Source of the DNA: Candidatus Velesiimonas alkalicola
Lineage (GTDB): Bacteria; Omnitrophota; Gorgyraeia; Velesiimonadales; Velesiimonadaceae
Assembly (NCBI GenBank): GCA_013626165.1
Contig: NDHX01000006.1
Coordinates: forward strand, 2,060 to 66,059
Direction: 5' to 3'
DNA: 64,000 nucleotides
Shown: positions 13,803-59,194 of the stretch, one piece after another
How the letters are laid out: every line of letters starts with the position of its first letter
Numbering within the stretch: position 1 is the first letter of the stretch
Made by a program: the position numbers and the translations under genes
The notes under the pieces: generated by a model
Told to the model about the DNA's origin: nothing
Databases searched by the model: none
The model's input: the letters and a program-made list of their open reading frames with translations, nothing else

Positions 13803-14018
13803 TAGTTTATCTCTTTATATTTATGGGCGAAATGGCGTATAACCGTTGGATAACCTGCAATCCCACTGATTTCAAATTTTAAATCCCCGTTTTCACAAAG
13901 ACAAGTTTTGATTGAATTCTTAAATTATTTAATTTTTAAACATTTAAAATTTAGAGTAAAGTATTGTTATAGCACTAAATATTATTAAGTTTATAATTAA
14001 AAAGCAATTTCAAAACTT

Positions 14019-14072
14019 TTGTCATTTGACACTTGTCATTTAACATTTGTCATTTGAGATTTGTCATTTTTT
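14019..14072. repeat. Four tandem 14-bp repeats TTGTCATTTNNNNN
   Basis: ttgtcatttgacac / ttgtcatttaacat / ttgtcatttgagat / ttgtcattt, immediately 3' of the oxidoreductase operon. Related TTTGTCATT runs occur at 11062-11085 and 58-85. Confidence 0.8.
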
Positions 14073-19317: not shown

Positions 19318-20360
19318 TAGAAGTATCGCATAAATTGTTTTACAACTATAGGTTAAACTAAATAAAAATAGATAATTACCGATAATATATATAAGAGGAT
19401 ATATGGAAATAAGGTTACATAAGAATGCTACTACCTTAAAGATAAGGGATGAGATAAAGAAAAGTAAATTAAGTATAAATGCATTAGCAACTAAATACAA
19501 TATAGGTTGGCATACAGCAAAAAGATGGAGGGAAAGAGAGGATATTCAGGATAGGACATCTCGTCCACACAAATTAAATATAACCTTAACTAAAGAGGAA
19601 GAAGACCTAATATTATTTGAGCGCAAACAAAAGAAATTATCTTGTGAGGATATATATTGTATCCTAAAAGATAAAATCCATAATTTATATCCTATGAAGG
19701 TATATAGATGTGTAGCAAGGAATGGGTTTGGGATAATACCAGAAGAATTTATAAAAGAAGAGAGAAAAATTAAGAAGTTCAAGAAATACACAATAGGGTA
19801 TTTGCATGTAGATACACTCTATGCGCCTAAAATAAACACGACCCAAAATCAAAGATTTTGTGTGCCCGGGCATTATATCTTCACCTGTATAGACAGAGTA
19901 TCAAAGTTAGCATATGTGATAGTAGTAAAGAATAAAAATATGAAAAATAGCAAGATATTATTAGAGAAGGTATTAAAATTTTATCCATATAAGATAAATT
20001 ATATTTTAACAGATAACGGACAAGAGTTTTGTTATAATGCCTTACCAAAGAGTAAAAAGACTAAAAAGATGCATCCATTTGTTAAAGTATGTAAGGATAA
20101 TAAAATACAGCACAGAACAATAAAATTTAAGCACCCATGGACAAATGGACAGGTAGAAGCAATAAATAAGAAAATTAAGCAAAGGGTATTGACAAAATAT
20201 ATTTTTTCTGATACATTAGATTTAGAAAATAAATTGATAGAGTTTACAGAGTATTATAACAAGGAGGCAAAATTAAAAACTTTGGGATATAGGTCTCCCA
20301 AAGAGTACTTAATTGAGAAATATAATATTCAACTAACGTAGCGTTGTAAAACAATTAAAG
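19318..20360 (+). mobile_element. IS481/IS3-like insertion sequence with 14-bp terminal inverted repeats
   Basis: Left end aattgttttacaac (19322-19335) and right-end reverse complement aattgttttacaac (20343-20358). The AT-rich content (~28% GC) carries a single DDE transposase. Confidence 0.75.
19403..20341 (+). CDS. DDE transposase (integrase-core rve domain), IS481-like
   Basis: 312 aa with an N-terminal HTH and a catalytic region with TDNGQEF and HPWTNGQVE motifs. Confidence 0.8.
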   Translation: MEIRLHKNATTLKIRDEIKKSKLSINALATKYNIGWHTAKRWREREDIQDRTSRPHKLNITLTKEEEDLILFERKQKKLSCEDIYCILKDKIHNLYPMKVYRCVARNGFGIIPEEFIKEERKIKKFKKYTIGYLHVDTLYAPKINTTQNQRFCVPGHYIFTCIDRVSKLAYVIVVKNKNMKNSKILLEKVLKFYPYKINYILTDNGQEFCYNALPKSKKTKKMHPFVKVCKDNKIQHRTIKFKHPWTNGQVEAINKKIKQRVLTKYIFSDTLDLENKLIEFTEYYNKEAKLKTLGYRSPKEYLIEKYNIQLT

Positions 20361-20488
20361 AAAAGACTAAAATCTATTCTGTTAGCAGGCAGGTAAAAAG
20401 GCAAAGAAAATTGTTTGACAGTTTAAGAAAGAAGAGTTAAAATAAAGTGGTCTTTTGAAAAAGTAATATGGGGTTTACTGAATTTACA
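20355..20488 (+). repeat. 134-bp direct repeat, copy 1, abutting the IS right end
   Basis: Near-identical to 23676-23808, with 2-3 mismatches. Confidence 0.9.
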
Positions 20489-21800: not shown

Positions 21801-23675
21801 GAGGAGAGGAGATGGCAAAGATTAAGGGAGTAAAGGCGAGGATGTGTGCTGGCTGACCACATAGGTAACACTGGACTACGGATTTTAGCAAGTTCCTTTT
21901 CAATATATTCTACGAGAAAGTTCACTGAACCCCATCAACCTTATCTATTTGCCCCCTGAATCTCACAAGCCAATTTCTTATTCATCGCTTTTCTAAAACA
22001 GAAGTCTGTCATTAAGTGGAAAAAGACAAAAGTATACCCCTGACCTGTTGTGAATTTTCCAAAAAACTTCACATTACAGATGATAGATAATAGGACAGGA
22101 TAATTGTAATTATAAGTAGCACATTGCCCCCGAAGAAGCTACTCAGGTGCCTGTTGTTCAGGCTTACCCATTGTCCCAGACAATAGTTGTAATTTCAGGT
22201 GTGGTGGTCTCTTTTCCTTAAATAGCCTGCAGTAAGAATCTTCTCAAGTCTTTAGAAAGACCATTTCCTTAGCATATTCTTCAAAGTAGTATTCTAAACA
22301 GCTGCAAGAGTCTGATCCATTAAAAGATAGCTCTGGGTCATTGTAAAAAAACAGCTTTTATTTCTTCCCCTATCTTAGAGTAATTACTGTAGTAATTTTT
22401 CCTGCCAAGAACTGACATCTTAAAACACCTTTCTGCCAGATTATTATCTATAGGTACAAAAGATGCTTTACAAAGATAGTTAATCTTTTCCAATGTTCTT
22501 TAAGACTTTCTATTGCTTTAATCTGCTCTGGATGTTCATATTTTTGCCGGCTACGTTCTTTTGTCTTTTCCAATTTCTCTACCAACTGCTCCTGATAGAT
22601 AGAAAACTTATCAGGATTATTTAGCTGTGCCAGATGTTTTTCATTGATAAGATAGAGATTGGCAATATTATTTATTCATTCCTGTACCCAATAAGTAAGA
22701 ACATAGTGTCTTCTGGATATTTATCCTGTATCTTGATAAAATCTTTTCTTATAAAAATATCCAGGTCTGAAAGTTTCACCTGGAAGACCTGCCTTTGTAA
22801 AAAAAGACTGAAAAGATACTTATTCAGAATTACCTTAACCCAAAAGCTTACATCAAATTTACCCTTCTATGTATAATCTTTGGAGAAAAGAAGAAGTTAT
22901 AATAGGATTTAGACAAGAACAGGTTTTCTTATATTTCCTGCTCTGCTTTCTTCTTAAGAAAATAGGTCTTTCTTACCACTATCTTATAGGAATCTTCTGC
23001 AGTAGATAATTCTTCTAAAGACAATCTACATCTTTTACAATATCTTTCTTCTTTGGGTAATTTACAGAACTTTTCTACTTTTGGTAAGTTTTCAGGAGTC
23101 TTTTGTCTATAATACTTGGTAACTATCCTGAGCTTCTTGTTCTCTCCTTTCTGCTTTTACTTTTTAGACAGGTTTACTATCTTAAGTAAGAACAGGCATC
23201 TTTCTTGTAGCTTTGTTTTTCTATACTTTCTATTTTTATTTTTAGAATTCTATTTTCTTTTCTAAGTTTTTGATTTTTTCTCTTAAACTTTCCTTGTAAA
23301 CCAGTTGCATCTTTTACTTCTTTTTCTTTAGTATCTTCAAAGCATCCTTACATATTAGAGGCTAAATTCTTTATCTTTACCCAGGGGAAAATCAAAAAAA
23401 GAGGGAGGGGAGTTTAATTATTCTTTCTTTCTCTATTTGCAAGAAGAGCCTTTTTTAATGCATGCTGTTTTAATTGAGCATTTTGACCAGGCCAATTTAT
23501 CTTTTCACAAATTATTTAAGAGAGTTTGGTTTGAGAAAGATGAAAGTTCTTCTTTATAATCTTTTTTATTTCTTTTATTTTCTCTTTCAGTAAATTGCCG
23601 ACCATGATATATATTTTTCATCTTACAATAAATTATCATAAAAGAAAAAGCAATGTAAGTTTTTAGAATTATTTA

Positions 23676-23808
23676 TTAAAGAAAAGACTAAAATCTATTC
23701 TGTTAGCAGGCAGTTAAAAAGGCAAGGAAAATTGTTTGACAGTTTAAGAAAGAAGAGTTAAAATAAAATGGTCTTTTGAAAAAGTAATATGGGGTTTACT
23801 GAATTTAC
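23676..23808 (+). repeat. 134-bp direct repeat, copy 2
   Basis: Matches 20355-20488. It is preceded by ORF-poor AT-rich DNA (21.85-23.67 kb) containing stop-ridden reading-frame fragments. Confidence 0.9.
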
Positions 23809-28733: not shown

Positions 28734-30095
28734 CTAAAGACAATACCCAACCAGTGTGCAATTGTGAACATCTTTGACAAGAACATTGAAAATCTGCCCC
28801 GGTATAAACCTCGTTGGATATGGCAAGCTATCCAGTGGGGTAAACCTATCAACAGGGAAAACAATATTTCTGTTCTTTCTTGTATGTCCTTTTGCCCATA
28901 TGTTAGCGTCTATAGATTTTTTGACAATTTTTTCAACAAGGACTTCCTGTTCTGTGCCTATCAATCTTCTTAAATTATATTTTGCTATAGAAGAAACAAG
29001 GTCAAGTGCTACCCTGTGCCTTGACTTTTTATCGTTTATACTTACATCATCGGAAAGATTATAGGCAGATGTTCCTTTCCTCGTAGAATATTTATACACA
29101 AATGCACCGTCAAACCTTATTTGCTTTAAAACAGAAATCGTATCTTTGAAATCTGTATCTTTTTCCGATGGAAAGCCTACAATTATATCCGTTGTTATAG
29201 AGCACTGCGGAATTATAGACTTACATTTTTCTATCAGTTTAAGATAATATTCCCTTGTATATCCTCTGTTCATAAGCGTTAATATCCTGTCTGAACCGGA
29301 CTGTAAGGGAAGATGGATATGTTCGCACACATTGGGAAGTTCAGCAATTGTTTTAAGAAGTTTTTCATCCACATCCCTTGGATGGCTTGTCAAAAACCTT
29401 ATCCTTTTTATATCAGTTTCTTTATTTATGATTTTCAAAAGTTCAGTGAAATCACATTCTTGATATTTATATGCAGACACATTCTGTCCTAAGAGTGTAA
29501 CCTCCTTTACTCCTTTATTTGTCAAATCTTTTATTTCCCGGACAATCTCTTGCACCGGACGGTTTTTTAATTTTCCTCTTGCATAAGGAACAACACAATA
29601 TGAACAAAAATTTTCGCACCCCTTTGCAATATTTACAAATGCCGATACTTTGCTGTTTACAGATATACTTGTATTATCAGGATAATTCCTTCCAACCTCA
29701 AGTATATTTTTCTCTCCGTTTATTACTCTCTGAATAATATTGCCCATTAAACCTGTATCATCAGGTCCACATGCGAAAGAAAGTCCGGGTATTTTTTCAA
29801 AAACTTCCTCCCTGAGCAACTGCACAGAACATCCTACAAGCCCAACAACCGCCCCTGGTTTCTTTGATATTACATCTTTTGCATACTCTATCGCCCTGTT
29901 TTGAGCATGCTCTCTTACGGAACAGGTATTAAATAGGACAACATCAGCATCCTCAATACCATCAGACACAACAAATCCATCTGTCAGAAGACAGGACAAA
30001 ATCATCTGACTATCCCTTTTATTCATCTGACATCCGAAGGTACGGATAAAGATTTTTTTTGGCATATTTTTATAAGTTTTTGATTCTTTTGACAT
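28734..30095 (-). CDS. miaB: tRNA-i6A37 methylthiotransferase
   Basis: 453 aa with an N-terminal MTTase domain (TFGCQMN), a radical-SAM CxxxCxxC (CENFCSYC) and a TRAM domain. Confidence 0.9.
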   Translation of the reverse strand: MSKESKTYKNMPKKIFIRTFGCQMNKRDSQMILSCLLTDGFVVSDGIEDADVVLFNTCSVREHAQNRAIEYAKDVISKKPGAVVGLVGCSVQLLREEVFEKIPGLSFACGPDDTGLMGNIIQRVINGEKNILEVGRNYPDNTSISVNSKVSAFVNIAKGCENFCSYCVVPYARGKLKNRPVQEIVREIKDLTNKGVKEVTLLGQNVSAYKYQECDFTELLKIINKETDIKRIRFLTSHPRDVDEKLLKTIAELPNVCEHIHLPLQSGSDRILTLMNRGYTREYYLKLIEKCKSIIPQCSITTDIIVGFPSEKDTDFKDTISVLKQIRFDGAFVYKYSTRKGTSAYNLSDDVSINDKKSRHRVALDLVSSIAKYNLRRLIGTEQEVLVEKIVKKSIDANIWAKGHTRKNRNIVFPVDRFTPLDSLPYPTRFIPGQIFNVLVKDVHNCTLVGYCL

Positions 30096-30219
30096 TGTAG
30101 TTTCTTTTCTGTTTCTGAAAACAAAAAATTAAAGTGGGCAAAAAGAAAAAAAGAAATTTTTTTGTGGTAACGCCCCGCCGATGGCGGGGGCGATCTTGAT
30201 GTTTTTAAAAAGCAGCCCG
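30053..30219. repeat. 167-bp direct repeat A (terminator hairpin + miaB promoter + first 14 codons of miaB)
   Basis: Identical, with one substitution and a poly-T length difference, to 37856-38021. It contains the GC hairpin cgccccgccgatggcgggggcg followed by a T-run. Confidence 0.9.
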
Positions 30220-31712
30220 GCGAGCTGTTTCTTATCAGCAAAGTCTATTTTTTCTTTGCTGTCATCGTACCCATCAAGAAAGTCTTTTACTCTGTTAATA
30301 TAGCCCTCTGAGTGTTCTCGTTCAATTTCTCTAAGTTCATATCCTGCAAAGAGTTTTTTCAAGTTTTTTTCTTCGTTTCTGAGGCTTGAATTTTTCTCGC
30401 GATAGACATCTTCGCCAAGCAAATTTTCCAGATAAGCGTCTGTAAGTCTTGACTGTTTTTCTTGGTTAATTTTCAGCTTATCTTTGAACAAACCCACGTC
30501 ATTGCGAGGTGTTGACATCCCTGATGTCAACACCGAAGCAATCTCAAGACCAGTCCCTGTCGTCCATCGGCTCTGTTTTAGGCGTTCGTTTTGGACCAAC
30601 TGAGCAACTATTTTTGTGGCCTCCGGCTCTATATCCTCTGCCTTCACTGCCCTGTTGGTACAATTTATATGGCTTGAATAAGGACCTGAACACCTATACT
30701 AACGTTTCTTCCTATTCAAGCGATGGTTTGATATGGACGATACACCTGTATACCTATGATTGCACTTAGCACAAGCGATAAGACCTGTCAAAAGATACTC
30801 TTGACTTTTTGTTCTCGGTCGCCATGTTCGTGTCTTGTTCGCCAGCAGCTTCTGAACTTCTACAAAATCTTCTCCATCTATGATAGGCTTATGCCTTCCC
30901 TGTGCAACAAGAACTTTAGAAGGATCATTTCTGATATATTTGTAATGTTTTTTGGTTTTCTGATTCTTGTCATAGTGTTTTTTATTCCAAACAATCTTAC
31001 CGGTGTAAATCTGATTCTTAAGTATGTCACAAACAAACTTGTTGTAAAATTGTTTGCCTGTCCTTGTCTTGTATCCTTTCCTATCAAGGTATGCTGCTAT
31101 GTCGTGTGTGCTCTTGCCGGAAATATACATCGTATATATCAGCTTAACGATATTCGTTTCTCTTTCTTCAACCTCTAATAGCTTCTTGGTTTTGTTATAA
31201 GCATAGCCGAATGGCGCAAATCGTGCGCCTTGCCAGTTGCCTTGTTGAACGCCTTTCATCATGCCAGGGAATACCCTTTCAGCAATCCGGTTTCTTTCAA
31301 ACTCGGCAAACGAGCCAAGCTGCTGAAACATCAGTGTCCCTGCTGATGTCGTTGTGTCAAAAGGTTCTGTTGCAGATTTGAAGCCAACGCCATAGGAAGA
31401 TAGCTCATCCACCAGCATAAGCAAGTCTTTAAGGTTGCGACTAAAGCGATCGATCTTATGGACCAACACAAGCTCAAACCTCTTTGCCTTCGCATCAGCA
31501 AGCAACTGTTGTAAAGCCGGGCGACGCGTGGAATATGCACTTATGCCATCATCGCAATACACCTTGAAAACTTCATATCCTTCACGATTAGCAAAGGATT
31601 CAAGGTATTCTTTTTGTACTTCTAAAGAATAACCTTCTTTGGCTTGGTCTTCAGTAGATACTCGTGTATAAATTGCTATTCTTAGCTTTTCATTCATTTT
31701 TAATATCCACAA
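30129..31712 (-). pseudogene. Large serine recombinase (integrase), split by a frameshift into 337-aa and 172-aa ORFs
   Basis: The N-terminal resolvase catalytic domain (IYTRVSTEDQ, Ser nucleophile) is followed by a recombinase domain and a zinc ribbon (CAKCNHRY). The coiled-coil C-terminal part continues in another frame from 30647. The last ~30 codons run into repeat A. Confidence 0.75.
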
Positions 31713-33042: not shown

Positions 33043-33503
33043 CGGCTGCTTTTTAGCAGCGGCTAGGGAGCTGATGCAGTCCCGCCGCAGGCGGGGCAAA
33101 AACATCAAAATCGCCCACAAAAAGCTCTTTTCTTTTGAATTTTTTGCCCCCTTTAATTTTTTATTTTTTGAGGAAAAACAAAAATGCCAAACCAAGAACC
33201 TAAAAAGAGTTACAAATTTTTTGCCTCCAAAGTCTTTATCCGGACTTTCGGCTGGCCTTATGCTTCGGCTTTACAATATACTTTATTTGTTCTTTAAGAT
33301 TCAATGAACTTTAGGCACCGCCTGCTTAGGCAGGCTCCCGGTGTGGTGTTTGCACCGTTCAGCTTCGCTGTCGCTCAGCTTCACTCCACGCTCGCTTGGA
33401 CGCTCGCTAAAGTGGTAATGCAATAGTCCGATTCGGCTTTGTGTTGGACGCATTTTGGGTGGCGGCAAAATGCGCCCAACACCCTGCGTCCTCAACCTCG
33501 CAA
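33043..33503. repeat. Inverted copy (B) of the ~450-bp unit that is also present at 37584-38021
   Basis: It holds a diverged reverse complement of the 167-bp miaB-promoter repeat (33043-33200), then cttcggctttacaatatactttatttgttctttaagattcaatgaac, then a GC-rich ~190-bp segment (33315-33503) nearly identical to the reverse complement of 37584-37772. Confidence 0.85.
33315..33503 (+). ncRNA. Candidate structured ncRNA, copy 1 (unknown class), GC-rich with nested stems
   Basis: ~60% GC in a ~35% GC context. Multiple perfect stems (CACCG-CCUGC-UUAG-GCAGG-..-CGGUG; GCAUUUUG/CAAAAUGC inside GUUGG/CCAAC). It is duplicated exactly, and the only ORF is a duplicated composition artefact. Confidence 0.4.
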
Positions 33504-37583: not shown

Positions 37584-37772
37584 TTGCGAGGTTGAGGACG
37601 CAGGGTGTTGGGCGCATTTTGCCGCCACCCAAAATGCGTCCAACACAAAGCCGAATCGGACTATTGCATTACCACTTTAGCGAGCGTCCAAGCGAGCGTG
37701 GAGTGAAGCTGAGCGACAGCGAAGCTGAACGGTGCAAACACCACACCGGGAGCCTGCCTAAGCAGGCGGTGC
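37584..37772 (-). ncRNA. Candidate structured ncRNA, copy 2 (reverse complement of copy 1)
   Basis: Near-identical to the reverse complement of 33315-33503. It is positioned ~90 bp downstream (minus sense) of the duplicated miaB promoter copy. Confidence 0.4.
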
Positions 37773-37855
37773 CTAAAGTTCATTGAATCTTAAAGAACAA
37801 ATAAAGTATATTGTAAAGCCGAAGCATAAGGCCATCCGAAAGTTCGAATGTAGAC

Positions 37856-38021
37856 TTTTTTTGGCATATTTTTATAAGTTTTTGATTCTTTTGACATTGT
37901 AGTTTCTTTTCTGTTTCTGAAAACAAAAAATTAAAGGGGGCAAAAAGAAAAAAAGAAATTTTTTTGTGGTAACGCCCCGCCGATGGCGGGGGCGATCTTG
38001 ATGTTTTTAAAAAGCAGCCCG
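37856..38021. repeat. 167-bp direct repeat C (copy of the miaB terminator/promoter/first 14 codons)
   Basis: Matches 30053-30219, including atgtcaaaagaatcaaaaacttataaaaatatgccaaaaaaa (MSKESKTYKNMPKK). Confidence 0.9.
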
Positions 38022-38177
38022 CACATCTCTTTCTTGGTAGCAAAATCTATTTTTTCCTAAACGTGCGGGTTTAATTAATCCTTTTCTCTCCCAGATCCCA
38101 AGTGTAGCTGGGCAAACTTTTAAAGACTTGGAGACTATACCGATAGTATAAACTGGTTCTTTATATCCATATTCCAT
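38007..38177 (-). CDS. Small MerR-family HTH protein (56 aa), candidate excisionase/recombination directionality factor
   Basis: MEYGYKEPVYTIGIVSKSLKVCPATLGIWERKGLIKPARLGKNRFCYQERDVRAAF has a MerR/Xis-type HTH. It is below the 60-aa cutoff of the ORF track, and its last codons lie inside repeat C. Confidence 0.45.
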   Translation of the reverse strand: MEYGYKEPVYTIGIVSKSLKVCPATLGIWERKGLIKPARLGKNRFCYQERDVRAAF

Positions 38178-39604: not shown

Positions 39605-40303
39605 TTATTCCTTTACGTTTTCTTTAAAAGAAGCGATATTAGGTTTAATTTTAATTGGCTTTCCTATCTTCTCTACAACAGCTTCCTGAGTCTTCAAACC
39701 ATTGCCTGTTACGCATACAACAATAGATTCATCTTTAGGTATCTTGCCTTGCTCAATGAGCTTCTTTGTTGCACCTAAAGTCACACCCCCTGCTGTCTCA
39801 GCAAATATTCCCTCTGTTTCTGCTAGAAGTTTTATTGCCTCAACAATTTCATCATCAGTCACGTCTTCAGCATAACCGCCAGACTCCTTTACAGTTCCAA
39901 CTGCATATACACCATCTGCTGGATTCCCAATAGCTAAAGATTTAGCGATTGTGTTCGGCTTAACTGGTCTTATGATATCGGAATCTTCTTTAACGGCAGT
40001 AACTATAGGACAACAGCCTGTGGCTTGAGCCGCATGAATTTCTGTATCAACTTTGTCAATCAATCCTATGGTCTTAAATTCTTTTAACCCTTTCCAGATT
40101 TTGGTGATTAAAGAACCGCCGGCACAGGGAACTATAAAGTGTTGACTAACGATACATTAAGTATACAACTTAATGTATCGTTAGTCAACACATAATCAAC
40201 CTCTAAGGGGCCAAAGCAGTACTCGCATACATAGAGAGGCTTTTTTGGATATGTTCTTTGGCATTCTCTGCACTTTAATCCTTTAACATAACTTATATTT
40301 TCA
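39605..40303 (-). pseudogene. thrC: Threonine synthase (zinc-ribbon-containing type) remnant with an internal deletion and stop
   Basis: The N-terminal zinc ribbon LKCRECQRTYPKKPLYVCEYCFGPLEVDY (40197-40300) runs in-frame into the 53-bp palindrome and a TAG stop. The C-terminal part (QHFIVPCAGGSLITKIWKGL...VVCVTGNGLKTQ, 39605-40138) is in another frame. About 200 aa, including the PLP-lysine region, are missing. No ATG is in frame at the 5' end. Confidence 0.7.
40139..40191. repeat. 53-bp near-perfect palindrome (24-bp arms, 5-nt centre), copy 1
   Basis: gtgttgactaacgatacattaagt-ataca-acttaatgtatcgttagtcaacac. A second copy lies at 58141-58191. Confidence 0.9.
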
Positions 40304-51463: not shown

Positions 51464-51503
51464 CCACAGAGAACACAGAGAATTAACTCTGTGCCCTCTG
51501 TGG
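51464..51503. terminator. Hairpin ccacagag-aacacagag-aattaa-ctctgtgcc-ctctgtgg between the efflux pump gene and pstC
   Basis: An 8-bp perfect outer stem plus an inner stem, flanked by T-rich tracts. It is a plausible intrinsic terminator for the RND operon. Confidence 0.4.
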
Positions 51504-51562
51504 TTTATTTTGTGGTCTATTTATCATTTTTCCGTCATTACTGCAAGTTTATTTTACATTTT

Positions 51563-55917: not shown

Positions 55918-56883
55918 CTAGTGCTCGTGATGAACTCCTTCATCGTGCCTGTGTGGATGTCCCTCTTCAAAACACCAGCAATGGCAGCCCTCTCCATGTC
56001 TATGCGGATGTTCCTTTTTTCTTTCAGCTTCAGCAATGGCATAGGCGCCTTTGGTCACAACGCGCTCACCATCGGATAGACCAGACAAAACCTCTACAAA
56101 GTCATTATCTCTGTTGCCCAGTTCCAGATAACGTTTCTCAAAGGTTTCGCCGGCTACCTGGACGAAAGCTACTGGCTTGCCGTTTTCATCAATCAGAGCC
56201 GACTCTGGTACAACCAAGGTCTCCTGTCCTATCGCTTTTCGTCGTCCCACAGGTTCGGCCCTGGTTAGCATTTTCCATTGCTGTTCCTTGAGAAAACTTA
56301 TGCCAGCGATCTCTTTAGGAAATGGAGCACGGTCAACTTCTTCATGGGAACCATATACCTCAAAAGGCGGCAGTTCGACGAGATGATCTTTGCCTTCAAG
56401 GGGGATAACCAGCGACAGACTCCACTCACCAGGTAGTGGAAAAGTTAGTTCTGGAATGTAAATACCGTCTCTAACCGGAGCCCGTGCGATATGCTTGTCC
56501 GGTGTCTCGGAGCCGCGACGCAAAATGAAAGTAACGGGTCCTTTTCCCCGAGGCTTAAGTGTTTGCAGGTCGGAGACATGGGTGATAAATTTGGTTGGTG
56601 TATTTGCCACGATAAATGCATGCTCAAGGAAAATTTCGAATCGCTCGGTCCAAACCGTGACCTGGGACGATTTTTCTGCGCCATGACCAATATGGACAGG
56701 ATGCTCTGCGTCATGTTTGTGTGCATCTTCCTCCTTCCCTTGTTGTTCGAAACAATAGCAATGGCATACCTCTCCGTGTTTATGCGGATGCTCCTCTTCC
56801 CTGAATCCTCTCCACACTAATATTCCCACAATTAAACAAACTATACCTACAATTAACAGCCACGGCCAATAAGACCTTTTCAT
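55918..56883 (-). CDS. Chimeric, shortened periplasmic adaptor paralogue with His/Cys-rich segments at both termini
   Basis: The N-terminal 38 aa and the C-terminal HPHRHGEGCHCWCFEEGHPHRHDEGVHHEH are identical to the neighbouring adaptor. The middle has a unique domain plus an MFP C-terminal beta-barrel-like segment (ETLVVPESALIDENGKPVAFVQV...GERVVTKG). Confidence 0.6.
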   Translation of the reverse strand: MKRSYWPWLLIVGIVCLIVGILVWRGFREEEHPHKHGEVCHCYCFEQQGKEEDAHKHDAEHPVHIGHGAEKSSQVTVWTERFEIFLEHAFIVANTPTKFITHVSDLQTLKPRGKGPVTFILRRGSETPDKHIARAPVRDGIYIPELTFPLPGEWSLSLVIPLEGKDHLVELPPFEVYGSHEEVDRAPFPKEIAGISFLKEQQWKMLTRAEPVGRRKAIGQETLVVPESALIDENGKPVAFVQVAGETFEKRYLELGNRDNDFVEVLSGLSDGERVVTKGAYAIAEAERKKEHPHRHGEGCHCWCFEEGHPHRHDEGVHHEH

Positions 56884-58115
56884 AGTTCACCTCCTGTTGT
56901 TTTTTCTAAAATCGCTAACTTTATTTGATGGTCAAGTATGGACCTAAAATAACTCAATCGAGTCCCTTTGAATGTTGTTAGAACTTCAAGATAGGTTAAA
57001 AAATCGGTTTTTCCTTCCGCATATTGCATCTCAATCAGCCTGATTAATTCGCTTCCTTTCTTTACAGATTTTTCCATCAGTGCCACTTGCCTATCAGATA
57101 AAACAACCTCCCCAAAGGCATTGTTAACTTCTAATTCTATCTGCCTTTTGAGGAAATTTATTTGATATTCTATCTTTTGTGACTCATTTCTTGCCTCTGC
57201 AATCTCACCTTGTTTTCTATACCAGAAAGGTAAAGGTATTCCCAGGGTGACTCCCAATCTCTGTTCTCTGTCTTCCCGTTCTGCCCAAAAACCGACGGAG
57301 GGGTTAGCAAACCTCTCTTTTCTCATCAATTTTACCTCCATATTTTTTGAATCAAGCATCAGTTTTTTAGCCTTAAGGTCTGGCCTGTTTATCAAAGCAT
57401 TTTTTATAAGCGTGTCTAAATCAAACCGCCTCTCTTTATAAACAAATTCATCGGTGCAAACGAATTTATGAGAGACCGATCTCCCGAGTAAAATATTTAA
57501 TTTTGCCTTATTAAGAGAGAGATCTTTTTCGGCTACTAATAACTCATTTTGAGCGTAAAACATCTCAATCTCCGCCCTGAGTAATTCACTCCTTAAAACT
57601 TCTCCAAGATTAAATTTCTCCCGGACTTTATCCAAAAATTTCCTGGTTAGATTTAAAGACTCCTCAGCAAGTTCCTCTATTTTTCTTGCCAACAATATCT
57701 GAGCATATGATTCCTTAACCTTAAAAGAGACCCCCAAGTGGATTAACTCCAACTCACTTTCGTAGATTTTAATCTCATTTCTTGCCATATTTCCCCGGAG
57801 TGTTCTTTTCCCAAAGAGTTCCAATTCTTGACTGACTTCAACTTCTACACCTCCGGAAGGATTTTTCATTACCGTCTCAAGTTCAGGATTAGGATAAGCC
57901 AAAGCCTGAACAACTCTTGCCCTTGCTGATTCAATATTTTTTTCTGCTGTCACTATTTCAGGATTATTTATAAAAGCGATTTTCAATGCCTCTTCCAAAG
58001 AAAGTTTTTCCAACTCTTCCCCTCCGGCTATCTTAATATGGAAGGACATCAATGTTAACACGATAAGAACGACCTTCATCACAACCTCCTCTGGTATAAT
58101 CTTCACCCTAGACAT
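56880..58115 (-). CDS. Outer-membrane efflux protein (TolC/CzcC/CusC family)
   Basis: 411 aa with a signal peptide and two OEP repeats. It is translationally coupled to the downstream adaptor gene. Confidence 0.8.
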   Translation of the reverse strand: MSRVKIIPEEVVMKVVLIVLTLMSFHIKIAGGEELEKLSLEEALKIAFINNPEIVTAEKNIESARARVVQALAYPNPELETVMKNPSGGVEVEVSQELELFGKRTLRGNMARNEIKIYESELELIHLGVSFKVKESYAQILLARKIEELAEESLNLTRKFLDKVREKFNLGEVLRSELLRAEIEMFYAQNELLVAEKDLSLNKAKLNILLGRSVSHKFVCTDEFVYKERRFDLDTLIKNALINRPDLKAKKLMLDSKNMEVKLMRKERFANPSVGFWAEREDREQRLGVTLGIPLPFWYRKQGEIAEARNESQKIEYQINFLKRQIELEVNNAFGEVVLSDRQVALMEKSVKKGSELIRLIEMQYAEGKTDFLTYLEVLTTFKGTRLSYFRSILDHQIKLAILEKTTGGEL

Positions 58116-58140
58116 CCTAGAGCGAATTGGTTAGTAAATT

Positions 58141-58191
58141 GTTAGATAACGATACATTAAGTATACAACTTAATGTATCGTTAGTCAACAC
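58141..58191. repeat. Second copy of the 53-bp palindrome (left arm slightly degenerate)
   Basis: ...aacgatacattaagtatacaacttaatgtatcgttagtcaacac, with a ~46-nt identity to 40146-40191. It lies between the OMP gene start and pstS. Confidence 0.9.
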
Positions 58192-58258: not shown

Positions 58259-59194
58259 TTATTCCATTGCGTTCAAAACTTCTTCTCTTTCCGTCTTTGA
58301 CAGCGACAAACTTGTTTGTATTTCGTCAACAATTTTTGTGCCTTCATCAGAAAGAGCAAACTTAATGAACTCTTTTACTAATCCTTTTGGTTTACCTTTG
58401 ACAAAGAAATAATTTTTTCTTGTCACCGGGTATCTACCTGCACGGATTGCTTTGATTGCGGTTTCACGGTCGTTGTAAATTTCATCCGGGTCAGCGAGAC
58501 CATTTTCATTGGAATCAATTGGAACTAACTTCACACCTTTTACTACTGTCCCTTCCCTTGTAAAGACAAAACTAAAGTTAGAATATCCAATCCCAATTGG
58601 GTCTCTTCTAGATGCTTCAAGTAATCCTGGGTCACCAAATATACCCACACCACGCAAATCTTCTTGCTTCTTACCTAAGTATGCTGCCCAAGTTGCTGCC
58701 GCACCGCAAGAATCAGAGCGGGTATAGACATGGATTGGTCTACCTACCTTCCGTCCAACTACTTCATCCCAAGTAGTAATTATGCCGCTGATATAAATGT
58801 CAATCCAGGTCTGTCTCTTTACACCTTTTTTTAGAAGGTCTTGCAGTACTGGATTTTTATCACTTATCGTTGGATATACTGCATCATGCAAAATGTAAAT
58901 TGGCACTATCCCTTTCTTAATCTCTGCCGGGTCAGGGTCACGAGAGACCATTCCGATATCAACTAATCCGGCAATCGCATCTGCCGCGCCTTTTCCGGCG
59001 CCGCCGGCAGAGACATCAATTCTCACACCGGGGTGTTTTTTCCGGAATGCTTCCGCCCAAGCAACCGCAGTCGGATAAATTGCCCAGGCTCCCGATAACG
59101 TTACCGTTCCTTTGAGTTCTTTTTCCTGACTAAACCCAATTTTTCCGCTTAACAACAAAACAACTATTAATAAAATATTTATCATTTTAGTCAT
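58259..59194 (-). CDS. pstS: Periplasmic phosphate-binding protein (PBP-fold)
   Basis: 311 aa with a signal peptide and a type-2 PBP pattern of the PstS family (SGAWAIYP...SAGGAGKG). Confidence 0.6.
   Translation of the reverse strand: MTKMINILLIVVLLLSGKIGFSQEKELKGTVTLSGAWAIYPTAVAWAEAFRKKHPGVRIDVSAGGAGKGAADAIAGLVDIGMVSRDPDPAEIKKGIVPIYILHDAVYPTISDKNPVLQDLLKKGVKRQTWIDIYISGIITTWDEVVGRKVGRPIHVYTRSDSCGAAATWAAYLGKKQEDLRGVGIFGDPGLLEASRRDPIGIGYSNFSFVFTREGTVVKGVKLVPIDSNENGLADPDEIYNDRETAIKAIRAGRYPVTRKNYFFVKGKPKGLVKEFIKFALSDEGTKIVDEIQTSLSLSKTEREEVLNAME

Follow-up and report, generated by a model that had tools for sequence, protein, structure and literature searches.

A palindrome of little more than 50 bp stands twice in the window, our term for the whole 64-kb stretch of DNA analysed here: once within a thrC-like gene, and once between a pstS-like and a czcC-like gene. 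What is this hairpin, and how did it come to lie at these two places? A sequence-only reading of the window had suggested a miniature palindromic element linked to rearrangement, rather than a terminator. Our analysis bears this suggestion out: the arms match the terminal repeats of an insertion sequence (IS), the element is present in multiple copies, and both copies in the window lie at deletions or replacements of host DNA.

Sequence and folding of the two copies

Copy 1 (40139-40191, minus strand) reads GTGTTGACTAACGATACATTAAGT-ATACA-ACTTAATGTATCGTTAGTCAACAC, 53 bp in total, of which the 24-bp arms are perfect, as had been read before, and enclose a 5-nt loop. The same left-type end (IRL), TGTTGACTAACGATAC, is found at both extremities, and the element proper, TGT...ACA, spans 40140-40190. 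Copy 2 (58139-58191, minus strand) runs from an IRL at 58190 downward through the hairpin to a right-type end (IRR), ...GTATCGTTATCTAACA, which finishes at 58140. Its left arm starts TTGTTAGATAAC... and holds all four positions that distinguish it from copy 1, with T for G at 58139 and AGA for GAC at 58144-58146. The two copies are thus identical at 49 of 53 positions, where about 46 shared nucleotides and a distance of 18 kb had been estimated. The repeat common to both reaches 63 nt at 92% identity and starts at 40135 and 58135, a spacing of exactly 18,000 bp. We take this figure as a coincidence, because independent public contigs reproduce copy 1 as a whole and the pstS-side half of copy 2.

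The 35-nt core of the palindrome occurs twice in the window against 0.00 expected from shuffles, and a degenerate pattern of the ends, TGTTNNNTAACGATAC, matched the four arms and nothing else in the 64 kb (0 expected in shuffles). When folded as single-stranded DNA, copy 1 yielded -24.7 kcal/mol (z = -12.3) and copy 2 -16.2 kcal/mol (z = -9.1). The stem is AT-rich; no T-tract follows either copy, as had been stated earlier, and a terminator scan likewise called no intrinsic terminator at the two sites. Searching Rfam with the palindrome returned generic hairpin matches only, at 18-27 bits against cut-offs of 54-211 bits. The unit, 51-53 bp long, contains no ORF of its own.

The window also holds other repeats. 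A 300-nt inverted repeat (33204-33503 and 37584-37883, 94% complementary) flanks a 4.08-kb segment with several minus-strand genes, and this segment could be invertible or composite. Each 300-nt arm includes a palindrome with a 17-bp stem, GTGTTGGACGCATTTTG...CAAAATGCGCCCAACAC, for which no Rfam match was obtained. A 224-nt direct repeat (30031-30254 and 37833-38056, 93% identity, 7.8 kb apart) runs across the outer border of the inverted repeat at 37584-37883, and both of its copies carry a G+C-rich hairpin, CGCCCCGCCGATGGCGGGGGCG. A 14-nt unit, (A/G)ACNTTTGTCATTT, is repeated in tandem three or four times at 14014-14069, in the manner of iterons or repeated binding sites.

Ends of an IS481-like insertion sequence

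Judged by alignment, the arms of the palindrome correspond to the terminal inverted repeats (TIRs) of a compact, IS481-like IS of 969-972 bp. Three full-length relatives from unrelated metagenomes (L042, L034 and L039) start with TGTTGACTAACGATA and finish with GTATCGTTA(T/G)CTAACA. In L042 (969 bp, positions 1964-2932) the IRL is TGTTGACTAACGATACGTTAAGTTGTATACTTAATGC-ATG and the IRR ...CTACAACGTATCGTTATCTAACA; the corresponding ends are TGTTGACTAACGATAGG... and ...GTATCGTTAGCTAACA in L034 (972 bp), and TGTTCACTAACGATATG... and ...GTATCGTTATCTAACA in L039 (971 bp). The arms are identical to the two ends of L042, IRL and IRR, and to the IS ends present at The Cedars (L006 and L008), and are related to the ends of L034 and L039 (alignment A1).

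The full-length IS has TGTT...AACA ends and a single 309-aa ORF. Its left end, TGTTGACTAACG-ATACATTAAGT-TGTAT-ACTTAATGTAT-GG(ATG...), consists of a 16-bp terminal repeat, then an 11-bp hairpin (as folded), then the start codon of the transposase. The right end, ...CAAC-GTATCGTTATCTAACA, also codes for the C-terminus of the transposase, QRIVI*. QRIV(I/S)* closes approximately 90 of the 138 family proteins examined, a conservation that is expected if the right end must serve as both coding sequence and TIR.

The transposases of this family carry rve and rve_3 domains and an N-terminal HTH, and the cognate HTH protein or transposase that had been envisaged for the palindrome would be this IS481-like enzyme, the arms being its TIRs. 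The IS481 model NF033577 is their best NCBIfam match (E = 3.5e-64 and 217 bits for P0124; 183 bits for the transposase in the window), followed by IS3 at only 61-69 bits; with 183-217 bits the family falls just under the curated IS481 cut-off of 224 bits. IS481 elements measure 950-1300 bp, have TGT ends and produce 4-15-bp target duplications. The parent IS agrees with them in its length of about 970 bp, its TGT termini and its single rve-type DDE transposase of approximately 309 aa with an N-terminal HTH. It differs in its score just below the curated threshold, in a right TIR made of the last five codons plus the stop, and in a left TIR that holds a -35 hexamer, with a predicted mRNA that is nearly leaderless. 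The 4-15-bp target duplications of the family were likewise not seen at the three full-length copies, whose flanks, just 4-35 nt on one side, showed no direct repeats and may derive from collapsed multi-copy contigs.

Within the window, no full-length IS has exactly the ends of the palindrome. A resident member of the same IS481-like family (19333-20356, plus strand; 1,024 bp) is apparently intact and diverged; it encodes a 312-aa transposase, and its 23-nt TIRs (87% identity), AATTGTTTTACAAC... and TGTTTTACAAC..., are related to the arms but distinct. Close to it, a 134-nt direct repeat (20354-20487 and 23675-23808, 98% identity) has a promoter-like TTGACA-N17-TAAAAT inside; a diverged copy of this repeat lies at 37-132 of contig L008, with the parent IS inserted into it.

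We also followed the arm into public DNA. A 20-nt arm probe gave one match among species-representative genomes, on a short contig binned as Chloroflexota, and none among viral contigs. In metagenomes it matched 12 contigs, every one of them from the BBPD-BBPG assemblies, and mostly at a contig end. The Cedars is a site of serpentinising springs, from which Ca. Lithacetigenota was described (PMC9751293). In The Cedars metagenomes, palindromic copies occur in at least five contexts (thrC, pstS, L012/L013, L016 and L008), and the perfect IRL/IRL form is found at four unrelated loci, namely 40140-40190, L012, L016 and L008. Many contigs break inside the palindromic repeat. The community contains the full-length form as well, in which a single arm is followed by ...TTGTATACTTAATGT-ATGGAAATAAAGTTACATAAGAATGCCAC. 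At no fewer than three flanks (L006/L007, L010 and L014/L017) the arm leads into ATGGAAATAAAG..., which encodes the family N-terminus MEIKLHKNAT of a gene paralogous to the resident 312-aa transposase. Contig L008 opens with TACACTACAACGTATCGTTATCTAACA, an IRR variant that encodes ...TLQRIVI* and represents the right end of The Cedars element. Since full-length parents lie in contigs with a G+C content of 0.36 to 0.51, more than one host is involved.

No target-site duplication was found at either window copy or at L016, and L012 offers a possible 4-bp TTAT only; at the window copies none is expected, since both are at deletions. TATG precedes three palindromic copies. A TA duplication or a fixed TATG target, as for Tc1/IS630 or IS200/IS605 elements, was considered and rejected: the flanks of other copies differ, and the distance to TA varies.

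Two of the community contigs merit a separate description. In L012 (BBPE01001106.1, 3045-3269) a palindromic copy lies directly next to the N-terminal 74 codons of another IS481-type transposase, the remainder of which is missing; HicA/HicB-like toxin-antitoxin genes come next. In L007 (BBPE01019044.1, 1-1230) and at the contig end of L006, a nested IS630-family IS is inserted behind codon 10 of the IS481-like transposase gene, and the sequence beyond this IS in L007 is not the remainder of that gene. The nested element encodes a 350-aa DDE_3 transposase, targets CTAG and has a perfect TTGACA-N17-TATAAT promoter. We rejected it as a parent of the palindrome, because it has TIRs of its own (TAGTGGTTTGTCCC...) and its CTAG target, and starts 66 bp inside the arm (L019-L022).

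Loss of host DNA at thrC and upstream of czcC

The genes neighbouring both copies are all on the minus strand. Copy 1 lies inside the thrC-like gene of a cluster that also encodes a ThiS-fused cysteine synthase and sulfite-reductase-like, TusA, ThiS/MoaD, ThiF and NIL-domain proteins. On its upstream side is a 5′ remnant of 31 codons with a Zn-ribbon (40192-40284), the frame of which enters the element and meets a stop after 19 further codons. The 3′ remnant (39605-40138, approximately 177 codons) covers the C-terminal half of the PALP domain. Threonine synthase 6cgq of Bacillus subtilis, onto which both fragments were mapped, puts the gap between them at about 196 codons (~0.6 kb); since these include the PLP lysine motif SFKDR, the thrC-like gene is dead in this strain.

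Both junctions of copy 1 recur in public contigs from the same community (L001, L002 and L023). Logan unitigs either end in the loop (L003 and L004) or begin just ahead of it, in the left arm (L026), which is how a genuine perfect hairpin should behave in a de Bruijn graph. Unfilled alleles from the same community are intact across each junction: L005 reads ...GATTATG|ACTATGAAAAG..., and L025 reads ...GAAGCATA|TTATAGTTCCC. The earlier placement of one copy inside a deleted thrC is therefore correct. As a separate observation, the stretch 40260-40300 (minus strand) has no in-frame ATG, GTG or TTG between the upstream stop and the first Zn-ribbon cysteine, and the same holds for the intact L005; the start codon of the thrC-like gene may be unusual, or its N-terminus mis-defined.

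Copy 2 has as its upstream neighbour the pstS-like gene for a phosphate-binding protein (58259-59194, minus strand). Downstream, a 47-nt spacer (58093-58139, minus strand) separates it from the ribosome-binding site of the czcC-like gene (56880-58079, minus strand), which encodes an outer-membrane factor of 399 aa and is the first gene of an RND efflux cluster. Its start at 58079, preceded by GGAGG, agrees with public gene calls. Two CzcB-like genes and a gene for a 1038-aa pump follow, and pstC is next. The tandem CzcB-like genes have 5′ regions that are 95-96% identical over 101-201 nt (55573-55773/56746-56946 and 55525-55625/55918-56018), which suggests a recent partial duplication or gene conversion in the efflux cluster; one of them has His-rich HPH(K/R)H motifs at both ends.

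Public contigs L031 and L033 show the pstS-side junction together with the intact IRL arm and part of the copy 2 loop. The IRR-type arm and the 47-nt spacer were seen in the window only and in no independent contig, and the spacer matched neither the unfilled allele L028 nor any other locus fetched. Unfilled alleles of this site (L028, L030 and L032) read ...GAATATG and continue with a 58-nt hairpin repeat. In L028, the repeat is followed by genes for an ECF sigma-factor-domain protein (TIGR02937, E = 2e-29), a 147-aa protein and a DUF4190 protein, directly after which come the czcC ribosome-binding site and start codon. It is exactly at this ribosome-binding site that the alleles diverge, and that contigs L037 and L038 begin. 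Compared with L028, the window thus has the palindrome plus 47 nt in place of ~1.8 kb that includes the ECF sigma gene. At neither window site did we find a filled and an empty allele differing by the element alone, the empty ones carrying an additional ~0.6 kb and ~1.8 kb of host DNA, respectively. By comparison with these unfilled alleles, both copies do lie at rearrangement junctions, as had been proposed.

The palindrome had also been viewed as marking the point where an HME-RND cluster parts pstS from pstCAB. Its position between pstS and the efflux genes is correct; as a boundary of the inserted cluster it fails, because L028 has the same pstS-czcC order without it. The 58-nt repeat, which in L028 (2291-2348) directly follows pstS at the position taken by the palindrome in the window, has an identical counterpart at 51465-51522 (minus strand), between the RND pump gene and pstC. 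This argues that the ECF-czc block, and not the palindrome, splits pstS from pstCAB, and direct 58-nt repeats bracketing the block suggest how it came to lie there. Within the 58-nt repeat is a 19-bp hairpin (AACCACAGAGGGCACAGAG...CTCTGTGTTCTCTGTGGTT). By the same allele comparison, the palindrome would mark a later replacement of ~1.8 kb upstream of czcC. The RND cluster as cargo bounded by palindromes was likewise discarded, given the arrangement in L028 and the lack of a second copy on the pstC side.

Each copy contains a predicted sigma-70-like promoter, assigned by consensus match only. In copy 2, TTGACT-17-TATACT (58160-58188, minus strand; 10 of 12 consensus positions) points towards czcC; in copy 1 the same predicted promoter (40160-40188, minus strand) faces the 3′ remnant of thrC as well as the ThiS/MoaD-like and ThiF-like genes. 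The parent transposase has a homologous promoter at the left end of the IS (TTGACT-N17-TATACT): the -35 and -10 hexamers and their 17-nt spacing occupy the same place in three IS members and both palindromes, the -10 hexamer of L034 and L039 being TATAAT, that of L042 and of The Cedars element TATACT. Because the start codon is so close behind the -10 hexamer, the transposase mRNA is predicted to be almost leaderless. Upon deletion of the IS interior, a promoter that had faced the transposase gene would read out into host DNA. IS-borne promoters are well known to activate neighbouring genes (reviewed in PMC9330008), and the present arrangement is alike in that a complete predicted promoter lies in an element end, upstream of an efflux operon; in contrast to those cases, it faces inward in the full IS and reads outward only through the interior loss. 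Going by the hexamers and their position, the promoter of the element has probably taken over the expression of czcCBA from the lost ECF-sigma module.

Origin and significance of the palindrome

Collectively, these comparisons point to the palindrome as a non-coding miniature derivative, either a MITE or an IS scar, of the ~970-bp IS481-like IS. The interior of the IS may have been lost by joining of a GTAT at the foot of the left hairpin to the GTAT with which the right terminal repeat begins. A deletion between these two gives TGTTGACTAACGATACATTAAGTTGTATACTTAATGTATCGTTATCTAACA, which is base for base the minus strand of 58140-58190; copy 2 equals IS nucleotides 1-40 plus the last 12-16 nt, joined at the GTAT microhomology. 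Because of this identity, the arm of copy 2 that had been called slightly degenerate is best read as a true right end: the mismatches are there, but they would belong to an authentic IRR variant of the IS rather than reflect decay. That the product is a near-perfect palindrome with 24-bp arms follows from the hairpin abutting the terminal repeat. The perfect IRL/IRL form would be a homogenised version, one step further, reached either by correction of three hairpin mismatches or by recombination of two inverted IS copies at their hairpins. Most likely, this form then spread as a MITE, with the full-length IS of the community mobilising it in trans; a single master copy mobilised in this way is the simplest account of why the same perfect form lies at four unrelated loci. 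A further step, an adjacent deletion associated with the element, may have occurred at both window sites, since both copies lie where host DNA of sister strains is missing.

We consider it probable that all of this holds together, i.e. that an IS481-like miniature spread as a MITE, was accompanied by adjacent deletions and retained a promoter towards downstream genes. Several observations weigh against it. No copy has a clean target-site duplication, the TTAT copy in L012 being at a truncated transposase gene, and mobility of the 51-53-bp unit is deduced rather than seen as an insertion-only polymorphism. An IRL/IRL palindrome is impossible to obtain from one IS by a single internal deletion, and the copy 2 arm on which the internal-deletion derivation is based is the one seen in the window only. 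The resident relative has different TIRs, the window lacking a full-length IS with the exact ends; the transposases, as noted, score below the IS481 cut-off, and the promoter is a consensus match.

A less probable alternative is that the copies are scars formed in situ rather than a mobile MITE, each by collapse of one IS or of two inverted copies; in the two-copy case, recombination through the left-end hairpin would have removed the intervening host DNA too. Every copy whose context can be judged is at a deletion or truncated gene (thrC, pstS-czcC and the IS481-type gene in L012), convincing target duplications are lacking, and recombination of an inverted IS pair at the 11-bp arms of the hairpin would leave precisely an IRL/IRL palindrome plus a deletion, while the GTAT microhomology accounts for copy 2. 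However, scar formation requires at least four independent events with an identical 51-nt IRL/IRL product at unrelated loci, each preceded by two nearby inverted insertions, so that the spreading of one master copy is more economical; moreover, no allele with a full-length IS was recovered at either window site.

Far less likely is an artefact of assembly or library, for example through a palindromic linker, through chimeric joining or through repeat collapse at inverted ends. The exact 18,000-bp spacing is odd, many contigs end in the repeat, and palindromic linkers are known from mate-pair libraries. Yet the junctions recur in independent assemblies (BBPD, BBPE and QLTX) and in Logan unitigs of separate runs, which stop in the loop as a real perfect hairpin would make them do. 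The sequence is homologous to IS ends in unrelated metagenomes (L034, L039 and L042) and has natural variants (the IRR-type arm, and a G in the loop of L007), and a deletion is seen where a circularised mate-pair would have given a permuted order.

Equally improbable is a host operator, bound by a cellular HTH repressor that would co-regulate the sulfur-carrier/thrC and czc efflux operons. Each copy overlaps with a promoter-like site directed at the operons downstream, and long dyad symmetry is typical of operators. Against this, an IS family of unrelated metagenomes has this sequence as its terminus, the sites are absent from sister strains with the same operons, one copy is inside a destroyed coding sequence, arms of 24 bp are far beyond the usual length of operators, and no regulator gene is adjacent. 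The operator alternative raised in the sequence-only reading survives solely in the sense of predicted transposase-binding ends that include a promoter.

Integron attC sites have the core consensus R′′ RYYYAAC and R′ GTTRRRY. Least probable of all is that the palindrome is such a site, a REP/PATE-type element of an HUH transposase (IS200/IS605, RAYT) or an intrinsic terminator. Its hairpin is strong, and the TATG before three copies is superficially like the target choice of IS200/IS605. Its ends, however, match TIRs of a DDE (rve) IS instead of the subterminal hairpins of HUH elements, it is accompanied by no gene for a RAYT or TnpA, the arms deviate from the attC core and have no extrahelical bases, the AT-rich stem is without a T-tract, and no Rfam family came near its threshold.

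The favoured reading, an IS481-derived miniature, invites comparison with known bacterial MITEs, such as Correia of Neisseria, RUP of Streptococcus pneumoniae and MITECca01. Like these, the palindrome is non-coding, is bounded by the TIRs of an autonomous IS, and occurs in multiple copies within and between genes. Correia elements can also carry a promoter that reads into neighbouring genes. Reading of element-carried promoters into neighbours is a general concept (PMC9330008), and MITECca01 derives from ISCca4 in Cardinium (PMC9769881). In contrast to MITEs, which are usually 100-400 bp long, the palindrome measures 51-53 bp and consists of two ends and no more. It further differs in being a near-perfect hairpin, since the left end of its parent has an 11-bp stem abutting the TIR, in showing no target duplications, and in that every interpretable copy is tied to the loss of adjacent host DNA. 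The biology is familiar in kind and the mechanism not new; the form is unusually small.

The element explains two strain-specific lesions, a dead thrC-like gene in a sulfur-carrier/cysteine-synthase cluster and the loss of an ECF-sigma module before a heavy-metal RND pump. It also offers a worked example of the birth of a MITE, in which a microhomology of 4 nt would be enough to shrink a 969-bp IS to approximately 51 bp. Standard annotation of IS and MITEs overlooks elements of this size, which also break short-read assemblies and may turn an inward transposase promoter outward into host genes. A bolder and rather unlikely version is that the 51-bp unit is an active, near-minimal substrate of an IS481-type transposase that has repeatedly caused adjacent deletions and delivered a constitutive promoter. 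If true, replacement of the ECF-sigma/anti-sigma module would have hard-wired expression of the czcCBA metal-efflux genes, and the thrC-like gene of the sulfur-carrier operon would have been knocked out with the downstream genes still transcribed. In a candidate phylum of a hyperalkaline, serpentinising spring, the palindrome would then be a compact agent that rewires regulation and removes genes.
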